Assembly: GCA_951406725.2 (NCBI GenBank)
Contig: OX597818.1
Span: 74,710,001-74,774,000 of the forward strand
Direction of reading: 5' to 3'
Length of the DNA: 64,000 nucleotides
From: Octopus vulgaris
Taxonomy: Eukaryota
The notes under the pieces were generated by a model. It saw nothing but the letters and a program-made list of their open reading frames with translations. It was not told where the DNA came from and searched no databases. This document shows positions 1,048 through 63,365 of this stretch, piece after piece (within the stretch, counting starts at the first letter, position 1; each line of letters begins with the position of its first letter). The translations under genes were made by a program, and so were the position numbers.

Positions 1048-1846
1048 TTAGGTCATTAAGAATGAAATGTCCGATTTTGCACTCAAATTGTATTTTACAT
1101 TATCCACCAAAAGTAGCAATGCAGTTAATCAAAGTATGCACCTAAATTAACAGCATAATTTTGCCGTTTTATCAGTATCTTACTTATGCTGGCAGCGAAG
1201 AATTTTGAAGAGAAAGAGGGGACGAAATCACGGAAAGCTGTTTTTGATTCTTCAGATTTTGAAGTTTTTTCTTTGCAAAATGTTGTCTAATGCTTGGAAA
1301 ATGTGATAATCAGTTGGTGCAAGGTCTGGTGAAAATGGTGGATGGCGGAGTACTTCCAAGTTCAGTTCCTGTGACTTGAGTAGCATTCTATGTGCAACAT
1401 GTAGTTGAGCATGGTCTTGCAAGAGAATTGGCCTGTCTCTATTGACCAATTTCGGTTCTTTAATTGCAAGTTCACTCATCATTTCATCCATTTGCTTGAT
1501 GTACATATCCGCTGTAATTGGCTTACCAGGTCTCATGAAGTTGTAGTAGATGACACCAGCGCCGGACTATAAAACAGATACCATTAGATTTTTTTGGTGC
1601 ATATTCTTTTTTGGATTGTGTGTTGGCACTTCCGCTCTATTCAATTTACTATTCTTGAAAAGAATCCATTTTTCCTCGCACGTAATATTACAATGCAAAA
1701 ATGGTTCGTTCGATTTGTTTCAGATGGTCCAATACAGTTGCAATCGAAACATCAATCGTTGCTGCTAATTCATGCGTATTTTGAGATGCATCCGCTTTCA
1801 CTAGTTTCCAGCTCATCAGTATCCTCCTTTGTCTCAAGTTCACCAG
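1048..1846 (-). mobile_element. Decayed mariner (DD34D-type) transposon with internal deletions
   Basis: ORF 1252-1536 has LQDHAQLHV...HPPFSPDLAPTDYHIF, the mariner HDNA.PH and YSPDLAPSD motifs. Upstream frames give FLHCNITCEEKWIL and HQKNLMVSV. A TTAGGT-starting TIR-like end lies at 1048, next to TA-rich sequence. Confidence 0.9.
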
Positions 1847-1967
1847 TCAATGGAACTAAATTTAGCGGAAACTAATGGGTCTGCTAATGGTTCTAAAGTT
1901 AGCGAAAATGCTAATTGGCTAAACGGAAAGTTAGCTTCCATGACTTAGGGGAACCGTGCTCACCATG

Positions 1968-11181: not shown

Positions 11182-11949
11182 TATATACAAGTCATTGTAT
11201 GCTATTGTCCTTATACGTATCACTTATACAGATAATGTCGAATTCAATACATTTTCGTCGTATCCAGTTCCAAATTCATTCTCTTAGTTCATCGTGACAT
11301 GTTTATACACACATTTCATTTAGTTGACAATCCTTAGAATCATATAATATATTAATATTCATTTAATCTTTCATATTTCTGTAATATATTATGTCTATTT
11401 TACGTAAATATTTCTCAAACACTCCTTATTATTCCTAGTTATTCCTTTTATTATATCTTATATCTAATAACATTTCTCGGTTCAAATACTCATTATATCC
11501 CTTCCGCATTGCAATGCAATTTTTCCATTCATCACAAATTAAAGATAATTTAACATCATTTATTGTTACCCCTGCTGTGGTTTTATCAACAAATTATTTC
11601 ATTAATACCGATACTCTCGAAGTACATTCCATTGTGGTTTTCGTATGGTAGTCTAATTCTAATTGTGATAATGTTATGAGAGAACCCTGTATACACCCAC
11701 GTGATTGAAAGTGAACTAACGGGTTGCAATAAATAAAGAACTGTGTGAACTGATGGTCGACCGTATTGTTCACTGTGTTAGTGCGACGCGTGTTGGTTTA
11801 ATATTGCACCTGTGTTCGCGTAGTACGGAGTTCGTTCTGTGTGAACATGCTAATTCTGCGATAGGTTATTTTAGATAGCCACATCCAAATATTTATTTGG
11901 GTACTACTATTTTACACCTGACGTGTACACGAACGTAATAACAGAGAGT

Positions 11950-23974: not shown

Positions 23975-24045
<71 letters not shown>

Positions 24046-24431
24046 TGTATGTATGTAGTGAAAGATATGTCAGAGGTAATTTACCATATAACAGTTAGAT
24101 GTACCCATAGCCACACCTAGTTTTACCTCAGTATGTATGGTCCTTGTTATAAGGTATATGTTAGTAGGTAATTTAAAGGTAATATTCATATATATAAAGA
24201 CGATAAGAAATGGAGCAATAAACAGTGAGAAGTGGATCGTTGGTGTTATAAAGTCATTATTTAATTAAGAAGAGGTGTATGCTTACAGCTGCTTCAGTAT
24301 ATCAAGCTAGGGTAAATTTGCATTTACCTCGCTGCAATTATTAGACATCATCGGAACGATTATATAGCAAAGATAAATAGAAGGAAAATATAAAGTAAGT
24401 ATATATATATATCTATATATATCTATATATA

Positions 24432-24952
24432 CCGTAAATCCTCGAGTATAATCCCCCCTATTTTCCCCAAAATTTAAATGTTAAAATGCCTAGTGCGTGA
24501 TATATGCGAGGTTAAAAATGAAAAATATTTGCTAAGCAATGTCCGAGTCTCTATTTGCCGTCCGGTTTTGTTCGGATGCATTTTGTGAAGTCGGGTGCGA
24601 AATTACCTTAAGTTAAGTCTGAAAGCAATGAAGTTACAAAAGAATCATCCATAACTTGCAGTAAGCAACATTTATAAAAAATAATAGTTTTCAGAACACA
24701 GAATAACTTGTAAAAAAAATAACGATTTGCAAACATATTCACATTCCCGTATAACATTTAAGAACATCACCATTATTGTTTTACGCATGCGCGGAAGTGT
24801 TTGTTCGACTAGGTTCTGATGGCTTAATTACACACGACTCAAGTTAGAGAAGGGGTGCGTATTATACACAAGGTTTAGGTTTTTCAGAAGTACTGCCCCC
24901 TAAAATCCCCTGCGTATTACACTCAAGGGGGACTATACTCAAAGATTTACGG
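24432..24952. mobile_element. Non-autonomous pogo/Tc2-like MITE
   Basis: TIRs CCGTAAATCCTCGAGTATA / TATACTCAAAGATTTACGG, TA on the left, subterminal TGCGTATTA repeats, no ORF. Confidence 0.8.
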
Positions 24953-24955
24953 ATA

Positions 24956-25019
<64 letters not shown>

Positions 25020-25159
25020 ATTTCCTACCGAAATGCATTGCGAATAAGCCCGCCATTTTCATAGATATGTAAAGATAAATATTCGTACATGCTACGACGA
25101 ATTCTGCGGTTGGCTGTCGGGTTTGTAATGTTATGTTTTTTCTTATATGTCTTGAGTTT

Positions 25160-25223
25160 GTCGCACTGATGAGCATAGAATGCATATTCTGCATTAATTG
25201 CGAAATCACAGGTGATATGTAAC
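25160..25223 (+). ncRNA. Putative type I hammerhead ribozyme
   Basis: gtcgca-CTGATGA-gca[...]tgc-GAAA-tcac-ag-gtga-TA-tgtaac. The core is intact, helices II and III pair, and helix I has one mismatch and one G-U. Confidence 0.7.
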
Positions 25224-25352
25224 TAAATTTCTTTATTTTAAATGACTTGCTTTGAAGTTTTCCATTCGGTACAATTTGTTTATTTTAGTAGTTTTGACCG
25301 CAAGGGTCCCTCCTAGCGTGCGGTATCTATGAATAGTAGTACCCTCTATATA

Positions 25353-25390
<38 letters not shown>

Positions 25391-37128: not shown

Positions 37129-38918
37129 TTATATATACATACACGCGCGCACAAACAAACACGTATTATATTTACATGGAACATGAAATTACAGAATACT
37201 AAAAAGAAAGTACAATATTTTTTTAAACACGACAGCTGTTTCGGAAATCTCGGATTTCTCTACTAATCTTAATTCGCAGATAATGTGGAGAAGAGGCACT
37301 GCTATCTCTAGCGGTCGAGCGTTTGTCATTGATGCAACCAAGGAAGATCGAAATTATGCGACAGCGTGGTTTCGGCGCTGGAGATGGCGGAAATTCATCT
37401 ACCCACTATCGATATGAACAAGAGTGCAATTTGCACCAAAGGCTAATATGTGAGTTTCTCCTATGTTATCTACCGCTGCATAGTTTGTTCTAACAGAACA
37501 TCCACTGTTAATCGGGGACAAATATTACATTTCAGTATTAATATTGCCTCTATCGCTAATATGTATTTTTTAAAATCAAACTATACTATACATCTGCCAT
37601 CACAAGAATAAACTACAGATTTCATATAATATATGGACAGTAAGTGAACGGAAGAGTGAGGATTGGGAAACTAGAAGATTATTACATTCCGATTCTTTCA
37701 TACTAAGCTGATATCATTACTCTATACATATTATCCATAAAAAAAAGTATAGAGTTTAAATGTTTAAATGTGAATAGCGAATTATTACATCGTAACTACA
37801 GTGACTCGGGAATAATACTTACATCCGAGCAACTGTAGTCTGATTTGTATAATATGACAGCATGAGTCTGGATATAAAAGGAAACAATAAAGTACAAACT
37901 AGACGCTAAGTAGACTAGCGATCAATGTTTAGATAAGATCAAAGCAATAGAGAAACTTTTAAAATAACAAAAGATAAATCCAAAACGGAAATTCAGAAAC
38001 TACTAAAATAAAATGGAGATAATGTCCTCGTCATGGTCAATATCCTACAGACCGTCACAGAGAGGAAATGAAACACCATTAAAGCTAACAAAGGTTCAAA
38101 CACTCTGGACTAAAGGCAAAAACACATCACATTTTAACTACACAGCGTTAATGATTACCTACAATTTGTAACAAAATAAAATAATAAATCTAGTAACTAC
38201 CACCATCTAAAGACTAGGCAATCAGTATTAAAGAACAGTTGGTTATTTCTGCTTGATCAGTCGTCACAAAGATATAATATATCCATAAATACAACAGTGT
38301 TTGTAGTGATATCTACTAGACAGCTAGGGAAATTGAAGTATATGATGTAAGCACACACCAAACCCATTATATAAGAATGGTATTGGTATTGTATTCTAGG
38401 ACGCCATTGACCAGGGTGTTAATAATACAGAATAGCTAAGTTGAGATATAATTAAAAACTGAAATGAAAATTTGTAGGAAGTGGCAGCTATTTTAATCTC
38501 ATCCCACCAAACCATCATGTAAAAATCTAATAACAGAAATCAGGAAAAGAATATAAACAGTACCTGCAATAAGAGAGCAAATTATTAATAATACTATGTA
38601 TTTGGTATAGTAAATGGAACATACACTAAAAGAGAAATTTCCCATCAATACTGACAACGTCAAATTAGTTCTAAATGTTCAGAATTTATATAAAAGTTAT
38701 TCCCAGCAATACATTTCACACAATTGTGCAATCAAGTCTTAATATTGATTTCAAATCTTTGCTATAATGCTAGCAATTTCCGAGGACAGCGCAAGTAGAG
38801 TACACCGACACTACTGCTTTACTGGTGCTTATTTTATCGACTCCAAGTGGATGAACGGCAAAGTGGACCTCGGTAGAATCAACTCCTAATTTTAGAAACA
38901 TATTTATAACACGGTTTA

Positions 38919-43085: not shown

Positions 43086-43573
43086 TGTCTTTTGTTGTAA
43101 TATATAAATAATATTTGATATCTATCAATTATTCATTTTATCTCCATTTTCTCATTTTTCCTTAAATAAAGTGAAACTTCGGTTTATTCCTTTTCCTATC
43201 TAACATTTATGAGCACTAATATTAGTACTCGTAATCACATATAGGTAATACACCAGTAATTCATTGGATACAAATATCTCTTAGACGGTGTTTATAACCT
43301 CTAATTGAACTCACCAATACACACACATACACACAGACACACAGACACACACACACACACACGCACACACACACACACATATATATATATATAGTTTCAA
43401 TTTATAGAAAAAGAAAAGACGAAGATACGAAGACAAGGGTAGGAACAACAAACAAATGTTTTAGTTTGACAGTCGGGAAAATGAAAAAGTCTTTTACATC
43501 TCGATCCTACATTCTTTGACAGAAAATAATTACAGGAAATAAAGAGAATAAATGTATTTATCTATGCATATAA

Positions 43574-52979: not shown

Positions 52980-53153
52980 ACACCTCCTTCTTTCTGTGTT
53001 TTTTTCTCTCTGTGTATCTTTCTGTTGAAGAGCGTAGGCTCGAAACGTTAAAGACTTGTTTTATTTATATTTCCTGAGCGCCATACTAATACAATTGTTT
53101 GTTTGTTTTCCACCTGCCTTCGTCTTTTGTCTATTTTCATAAAGCTTCCCGTT
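52980..53153 (+). mobile_element. Short (TA)n-flanked pLTR-like repeat with a hammerhead-like motif; degenerate minus-strand copy at ~43400-43550
   Basis: TCTTT-CTGTTGAA-GAGC-gtag-GCTC-GAAACGTT-AAAGA. The second copy reads TTCTGTCAAAGAATGTAGGATCGAGATGTAAAAGAC. Confidence 0.6.
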
Positions 53154-53502
53154 ATATATATATACATATATATATGGCATGTATGTATGTATGTACGCAT
53201 GAATATATGCATGTATAAATGTATGTGTTTGTATGTATGCATGTATGCACATATGTATGTATGTATGAGTGTATGTATGTACGTATGTATGTATGTGTGT
53301 ATGTATGTATGTAGATATATGATTAAATTTAAATTTCGTTTTAAACAACGCTTTTGAAATGACAAAGAAATTTAGACATGAAGACCATTTTCATTTATAT
53401 TCCGCCTGTCTTCTTTAGCCACTTATATCTATCTTGGAATATTTTCCTCCATTGATTTCATATATTTGTAGTCTGATTCTTTGTTTTCTGTTATATTTTC
53501 TT

Positions 53503-62241: not shown

Positions 62242-62322
62242 TAAGAAAGTTGGTTTGTGAAAGCACGTGGGTGAATATATAAAAAATAGTAAAGAGTGAA
62301 AAAACGACAGAAGGCTTAAGAG

Positions 62323-63036
62323 GATGGGATCAGACGTGCAACAGAAATCAACATAGAAACTTTAAGAAAAGTTCAACACAACAACACACCTTCCCCGAAA
62401 ATACTACCTTACATATCTACATACAACCCCAGAAACAAAGAAGCCTTCACCATCATCACCCAGAATTTACCAATACTTCATAAAAACCCCAAATTAAAGG
62501 AAATTCTAAACATACACCAAATCATTAAAAGCTACAAACAGCCTAAATCACTTAAAAAGATTCTCACAAAGGCAAAATTGTCTTCTGAAATTACGGATGC
62601 AAAAGTAAAAAAATGTGGTAGATCGAACTGTGCAACATGTCCTAACCTGCTAGAAGGATCAGAATTCCTCTTTAAAGAGGGACAGAAATTCAAGATCAAA
62701 TCTAACTTTACTTGTGCCTCTGAAAACATAATTTATGTCATAAAATGCTCGGGCTGCCACCAAGACTACGTGGGTTCCACGGGACTATCACTCAGACGTA
62801 GATGCACACTGCATCGACAACAGATTGCATTCCCAGAATATAGAATGATACCTTTTAGTGAGCACATTGAGAAATGCGCAAAGCAACTACAACCACAATT
62901 TTTAATCTTTCCATTCTACCAATGTGCTTTAGGATCATCAACACAAATTAGACTAAACAAGGAAACATTCTTCATTGAAAAGTACAAGCCCAGACTCAAC
63001 CATCCGAACATACTGATACAGAGAAATTCACATTAA
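62323..63036 (+). CDS. Uninterrupted C-terminal part of a Penelope-like polyprotein (linker, Cys-rich motif, GIY-YIG endonuclease); no natural start
   Basis: Open frame DGIRRA...LPYISTYNPRN...KCGRSNCATC...FTCASENIIYVIKCSGCHQDYVGST...RCTLHRQQI...EHIEKC...IFPFY...RLNKETFFI...PRLN. Confidence 0.85.
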   Translation, partial: DGIRRATEINIETLRKVQHNNTPSPKILPYISTYNPRNKEAFTIITQNLPILHKNPKLKEILNIHQIIKSYKQPKSLKKILTKAKLSSEITDAKVKKCGRSNCATCPNLLEGSEFLFKEGQKFKIKSNFTCASENIIYVIKCSGCHQDYVGSTGLSLRRRCTLHRQQIAFPEYRMIPFSEHIEKCAKQLQPQFLIFPFYQCALGSSTQIRLNKETFFIEKYKPRLNHPNILIQRNSH

Positions 63037-63167
63037 GGGAAAGGAAAAAAAAATTTAAGCGATTATCTCCCTTACACCGGAAGAAATCACCCACTACCTT
63101 CCCTTATTTAGAACTCTCCGGAGCTTAAACACAAGGATAACTCTATTAAACATAAACATAACGTCAC

Positions 63168-63206
63168 AAGAAATTTGAAAAGCTAAATGCGAAACCGGTC
63201 TTTCTT
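63168..63206 (+). ncRNA. Putative minimal hammerhead (U3-A8 core) in the Penelope 3' pLTR
   Basis: AAGAAA-t-TTGAAAA-gc[taaat]gc-GAAA-ccgg-TC-TTTCTT; palindromic helix III ACCGGT and a GUC triplet. Confidence 0.6.
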
Positions 63207-63332
63207 TAAAAATTATGTCATTATAAAGGGAAAAAAAATTTGTTTAAAATTTTTTTAATATTCTTCAGACATATTGACGCAAATATATATATTTTTTAAC
63301 ATTTAAGCCTTCTGTCGTTTTTTCACTCTTTA

Positions 63333-63365
<33 letters not shown>

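Follow-up and report, generated by a model that had tools for sequence, protein, structure and literature searches.

The 64-kb window (the whole stretch of DNA analysed here) is AT-rich, microsatellite-dense DNA of animal type. On its forward strand, at 25017–25346, it carries a repeat copy with a GC content of 36%. Judging from its flanks and from a family of similar sequences in public contigs, this is likely a 5'-truncated 3' end derived from a Penelope-like element (PLE), made up of an ORF tail and a 3' UTR/pLTR. In line with the preliminary description of this DNA, the copy forms a module of about 330 bp between (TA)n tracts, placed by a repeat scan at 24953–25016 on the left, the putative insertion target, and at 25347–25387 on the right; the presence of (TA)n on both sides refers to this copy and was not counted across others. 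A MITE-like element (24432–24952), itself between TA tracts and with TIRs of 26 bp (23/26 identical), adjoins the module on the left. Further left, also between TA tracts, lies a non-repetitive 360-bp piece with a GVAMGT-like stretch (24043–24400, minus strand), which we rejected as a PLE RT given its weak tblastn matches (E 0.03–0.7), motifs out of order and lack of a match to the PLE profile. Neither a tRNA gene nor a pol III A/B-box pattern occurs in the module, hence there is no sign of a tRNA-SINE. BLAST and pattern scans found no second copy within the 64 kb: the candidate at 11897–11912 has 3 mismatches, is equalled in 9 of 100 shuffles and sits in an unrelated context, and that at 37997–38012 is unrelated.

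At 25160–25223 (plus strand) the module contains a type I hammerhead ribozyme motif, recovered by descriptor scan and folding, which ends 123 nt before the module end at 25346, on the sense strand. The elements follow the type I order, CUGANGA, GAAA and UH with helices I to III: the catalytic core strand C3–A9 (CTGATGA) occupies 25166–25172, with N7 at 25170 (T or A in the family), and is followed by a segment (25202–25217) comprising GAAA (25202–25205), a self-complementary helix III stretch (25205–25216, ending in U16.1) and H17, an A at 25217, giving the triplet AUA. The core is thus complete as originally described, and the position of the predicted cut, after 25217, holds as well. Helix I (25160–25165 with 25218–25223) is indeed imperfect, with a C-A mismatch at 25162/25221. 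Helix II is extended (25173–25201), with a 3-bp closing stem (25173–75/25199–201, the GCA/TGC already reported), a 3×3 internal loop, a predicted 6-bp inner stem (25179–84/25190–95) and a 5-nt loop; this inner stem, which by eye is also the one kept in two divergent family variants, displaces the AGAAT/ATTCT stem proposed earlier. Helix III spans 25205–09/25212–16 and had been drawn as 5 bp with a 2-nt loop; it is modelled as 4 bp with a 4-nt loop, at −0.6 kcal/mol.

With helices I, II and III set to at least 3, 3 and 4 bp, the motif is the sole match on both strands of the 64-kb window. Block-wise dinucleotide shuffles gave 0 matches in 100 with helix III of at least 4 bp, 3 in 100 with at least 3 bp and 22 in 100 at the loosest setting. 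The Rfam hammerhead models, which the preliminary description had put forward as a check, gave no match either at the gathering score or at E≤10. That last result, together with the matches of loose descriptors in 22 of 100 shuffles, would suit a chance motif inside an unrelated repeat; against it stand the 0/100 at strict settings and, as set out below, the behaviour of the motif in other copies of the family, so that this explanation is exceedingly improbable and the hammerhead motif is real. Among three repeat-linked hammerhead-like motifs in the window, this one is the most complete. A CTGATGA...GAAA pair at 1819 (minus strand) fails the helix I/III test and was treated as chance; it lies beside a mariner-type transposase remnant (1252–1900, minus strand, Pfam Transposase_1).

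Parts of the module occur in 20 of the 24 public runs listed (8 studies, three coded organisms), and no run contains half of its words, which is in keeping with divergence of this copy. Contigs from four of the 24 runs (X1, X2, X6 and X15) were aligned to the module at 80% likeness, with 472, 569 (the two genomic-size runs), 69 and 35 contigs matched per run; X6 and X15 are labelled RNA by guess, none of the runs that contain the module being on record as RNA. In the two large runs the summed word depth, which is not a copy number and has no single-copy control, reaches about 12,000–197,000 per bin from 25027 on, and indicates that the module belongs to a high-copy repeat family. Pattern scans of metagenome contigs and prokaryote genomes returned 0 module matches.

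Variant positions, taken from 40 of 57 rows, number eight within 25160–25223 among the rows listed. At 25162 the family letter is T, which makes up the entire depth in each of the four runs (30, 35, 3 and 4 contigs); since it replaces the C-A mismatch by a U-A pair, helix I of the family is 6 bp long and C25162 is private to this copy. N7 is a hammerhead core position free to vary, and it is the sole core variant among the rows listed, with A at 47, 33, 71 and 44% across the four runs. The 12 fixed core positions show no variant among the same rows, which has little weight alone, the estimated probability of this by chance being about 0.2 at the listed density. Two divergent variants, seen among the 24 of 125 loose ends that were read by eye, keep the core even though 11/21 and 8/17 of the following letters differ in ungapped comparison; the first is represented by 6 contigs (agreement 0.77) and the second by 1. 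By eye, the first retains the inner stem of helix II at 25179–84/25190–95: U-A has become C-G at 25181/25193, C-G has become U-A at 25183/25191, and one further pair is now G-U. The AGAAT/ATTCT stem is broken in this variant. The second retains all 6 bp via G-U pairs. The repair of helix I by the family letter, the restriction of listed core variation to N7 and the pairing kept in both divergent variants all speak against a chance motif. Uniform ribozyme function is another matter: G25173 (G10.1) is replaced by A at 48% of the depth in X1 and 63% in X2, its partner not being among the rows listed, and this counts against such uniformity in the family. Variants at 25173, 25178, 25198 and, very nearly, 25177 appear in X1/X2 and not in X6/X15; as contigs drop variants, we place no weight on this difference. 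If the common variants at 25173, 25177, 25178, 25196 and 25198 are linked, they would add one pair to helix II and place tandem G-A pairs within its internal loop.

At its 5' end the module reads, at 25019–25072 (plus strand), NFLPKCIANKPAIFIDM followed by a stop, that is 17 codons and a stop. Upstream loose ends extend this frame by up to ten codons and show, by eye, a short FR(L/I/V)G motif; their differences are mostly silent or conservative, and in one from X6 the frame is interrupted by a stop. Compared by eye with the C-terminus of Neptune1_Ap, as given in the supplement of PMC8557442, the tail and its upstream extension show 6–7 ungapped identities in 13. On translation, loose ends and this resemblance, 25019–25072 is probably the C-terminal remnant of the parent's GIY-YIG endonuclease ORF, of Neptune type. 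The module had been said to have no coding capacity, which is right to the extent that it contains no long plus-strand ORF and overlooks this probable remnant. Protein searches with two read-through module frames found no relatives, a Pfam search with the module frames no match, and a PLE profile built from 28 fetched proteins and run across the window no match at the module; an FR(L/I)G ending occurs in 0 of 152 fetched PLE proteins, which are related to another PLE of this window. The parent clade is probably of Neptune type. A source in the Hydra clade, considered for the form of its helix III and its preference for (TA)n, was set aside because by eye the tail fits the Neptune1_Ap ending better than that of Hydra; Naiad was rejected as these elements lack canonical hammerheads (PMC8557442).

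The loose ends that precede 25019/25026 in X1, X2 and X6 (three of the four runs) share a common upstream sequence, seen over 30–43 letters and unlike the 3' end of the module; no full-length parent was recovered. Since other copies continue upstream of 25026, this copy is 5'-truncated, and its portrayal as stand-alone is half right: the module is clipped at the 5' end, with upstream sequence in three of four runs. The contig joints tell of further breaks. Four of the six listed lead from a 5' point (25075, 25134 twice and 25151) to 25256–25288 on the opposite strand; pieces of the 3'-terminal region (25256–25346, plus strand) starting at 25256–25288 thus recur inverted at the 5' break points of other copies. 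A 979-nt contig (record 10 of X15) has 25075–25226 adjoining an inverted 25279–25350, and in a further loose end the 3' terminus appears as its reverse complement. Of the two remaining joints, one returns from 25311 to 25197, resembling a partial tandem, and the other leaps over 50 bases. Copies truncated at the 5' end, partial tandems, an inverted partner joined at that end and (TA)n as target have all been described for PLEs (Craig et al. 2021, PMC8557442), and variable 5' truncation with an inverted 3'-end partner or partial tandem is what the contigs contain. The reading as a PLE/pLTR is therefore supported by the inverted 3'-end pieces, the variable 5' breaks and the (TA)n site.

A different account, the main rival, would have the module as a clipped monomer of a non-autonomous, PLE-mobilised short element of the non-LTR retrozyme type, with a unit somewhat longer than 330 bp that includes a scrap of the parent ORF end; it may be transcribed from tandem copies, self-cleave and possibly circularise. 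The canonical-size hammerhead and a unit of 330 bp or more fit metazoan retrozymes, which measure 150–450 bp (PMC7229834), dispersed retrozyme monomers derived from pLTRs are common (Li, Clavereau & Pollet 2026, bioRxiv 10.64898/2026.07.22.740005), and the parent ORF was not found. Word depth falls about 8-fold in the first bin, a point in favour of such a unit that the divergent first 10 bases of this copy partly explain; the family is also present in X6/X15, whose RNA label is a guess. On the other side, no end-to-start (head-to-tail) joint appears in the contigs of the four runs, which as contigs cannot prove absence, the upstream loose ends do not resemble the 3' end of the module, and breaks at variable 5' points joined to inverted 3' ends are what truncation of copies from a longer template would leave. 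We regard this account as rather unlikely, bearing in mind that retrozymes and PLE pLTRs grade into each other (bioRxiv 10.64898/2026.07.22.740005). Of the two identities offered in the preliminary description, a solo pLTR or a retrozyme monomer, the former comes close, given the inverted joints and (TA)n, and the latter is the less likely one as end-to-start joints were not seen.

The PLE reading gains from a parallel elsewhere in the window. At 62276–63340 (plus strand) lies another 5'-truncated PLE with (TA)n flanks, which retains an ORF end with a CxxxxCxxC linker and GIY-YIG (62317–63036), a decayed minimal hammerhead (U3-A8 core, about 63168–63206) some 130 nt downstream of the ORF end, and, at its 5' break, a 44-bp inverted copy of its own 3' end (62276–62319); its full-length relatives carry an RT with a C-terminal GIY-YIG domain. 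This element and the module have the same layout and no common sequence, and the parallel was counted in favour of the PLE reading. The profile built from the 28 fetched proteins also picked out further decayed PLE endonuclease ORF ends at 43090–42443, 62153–62031 and 9153–9049, all on the minus strand. A second short module, without similarity to that at 25017–25346, occupies 52981–53155 (plus strand), where a (TA)n tract precedes it and TA repeats form its end; it has a minimal type I hammerhead-like motif (about 53014–53056) with a 4-bp helix II, a palindromic helix III, a 5-bp helix I, a core change at A6 and an extra base after A9, and is likely another truncated pLTR family.

Set beside known systems, the module comes nearest in layout to the 3' ends and pLTRs of EN+ PLEs (Neptune, Hydra, Penelope/Poseidon; PMC4209133, PMC8557442), with which it shares a sense-strand type I hammerhead some 120 nt before the 3' end, the (TA)n target, 5' truncation, an inverted 3'-end partner, a self-complementary helix III and the probable ORF tail. 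The hammerheads of animal PLEs are mostly of the minimal form (Cervera & de la Pena 2014, PMC4209133), whereas that of the module is not: its helix II is extended by the internal loop and the 6-bp inner stem, no extra base separates A9 from G10.1, and helix III has 4–5 bp. The long helix II and the 4–5 bp helix III are instead like those of canonical retrozyme hammerheads (PMC7229834). Within PLEs, the Hydra clade has a helix III of 3–4 bp with short loops, and the hammerhead of Hydra-1_Obim differs in sequence from ours (PMC8557442). Naiad PLEs share the (TA)n preference, truncation and inversion, yet end in the RT and are without a canonical hammerhead, which the module has in full (PMC8557442). 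With metazoan non-LTR retrozymes (Cervera & de la Pena 2020, PMC7229834; Li, Clavereau & Pollet 2026, bioRxiv 10.64898/2026.07.22.740005) the module has in common the canonical-size type I hammerhead, the size of about 330 bp, the GC content of 36%, high copy, the lack of a long ORF and co-occurrence with PLEs; it differs in lacking a tandem arrangement in the window or the contig joints, in its variable 5' ends with inverted partners and in the probable ORF remnant. Three module motifs had no match in a version of the supplement of Craig et al. (PMC8557442) with long protein lines cut short. No such family is described in the titles and abstract openings of the cephalopod and octopus retrozyme or hammerhead literature, subscription papers and Repbase lying outside this set, and the word 'ribozyme' does not turn up in the accessible text of a paper on Octopus vulgaris repeats (PMC13282606).

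Could this copy cut? The preliminary description had held it to be the best candidate in the window for monomeric cleavage. Folding predictions contradict this: in the best fold the core strand is paired with the helix III strand, and the catalytic fold lies 9.9 kcal/mol above that misfold (9.0 for 25140–25240), with an ensemble share of about 1e-7 and a pairing probability of 0.0 for helices I and III in three sequence contexts. Because C25162 both disrupts helix I and makes the misfold stronger, this copy is predicted to be inactive and is a poor candidate for cutting alone. With family letters the computed gap narrows to 1.1–5.8 kcal/mol over eight assumed combinations, with its minimum where N7 is A. 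The idea that this copy is itself active as a monomer, cutting read-through transcripts of the host after 25217, would find some encouragement in the intact core nucleotides, in a helix III longer than in minimal PLE motifs and in the nature of the energies, which omit Mg2+, tertiary contacts, concentration, kinetics and co-transcriptional folding. Against such an activity weigh the private helix I mismatch, the 9.0–9.9 kcal/mol deficit and the finding that 8 of 9 predicted Xenopus retrozyme dimers were uncleaved in vitro, intact cores often failing (bioRxiv 10.64898/2026.07.22.740005); we hold it to be very unlikely.

For the family the computed energies point elsewhere. Helix III alone is predicted at −0.6 kcal/mol as a hairpin and −13.2 kcal/mol as a self-dimer. 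With T at 25162 the double hammerhead, at −38.2, equals the best predicted dimer and lies below two monomers, at −32.8; for this copy it stands at −30.6 against −41.2 for the best dimer. These predicted values fit the dimer model proposed for animal PLE hammerheads (PMC4209133), and in tandem transcripts the hammerhead of the family is likely to work in dimeric form. Counting against this, canonical invertebrate retrozyme hammerheads, which the motif resembles in its long helix II and its helix III, do cut as monomers (PMC7229834, PMC7761336), among them those of coral and mussel (PMC7229834).

Taken together, we favour, with a probability of about 0.7, a model where a truncated PLE cDNA inserted into a TA tract and left behind an ORF tail and a pLTR, the family ribozyme being likely dimeric and this copy predicted dead. 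The RT/GIY-YIG protein of the element would have nicked the TA tract, and reverse transcription from the RNA's 3' end would have stopped after about 330 bases, so that what would remain is the final 17 codons with their stop codon, plus the 3' UTR/pLTR. The family hammerhead would work as a dimer when two pLTRs share one transcript; in a monomer, its core strand would instead be taken up in pairing with the strand of helix III. C25162 would be a later gain of this copy, bringing a broken helix I and a stronger misfold. A more elaborate proposal, of an abundant, PLE-derived transcribed family whose hammerhead is a switch, off as a monomer through pairing of the core strand with the helix III strand and on as a tandem dimer, with a tertiary contact through a conserved, extended helix II and release of unit-length or circular RNAs, strikes us as unlikely.

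Both the hammerheads found at the ends of PLEs and the retrozymes derived from PLEs have been described in detail, and one more truncated copy adds little. For an Anolis PLE, hammerhead cleavage was dispensable for insertion in vitro (PMC11167929). The modest value of the present sequence lies in its family, whose hammerhead stands between the minimal motifs of PLEs and the canonical motifs of retrozymes, and it is the family-type sequence, not this copy, that is worth assaying. Such a sequence is predicted to be weak as a monomer and active as a dimer, and would in this way bear on the role of PLE hammerheads.
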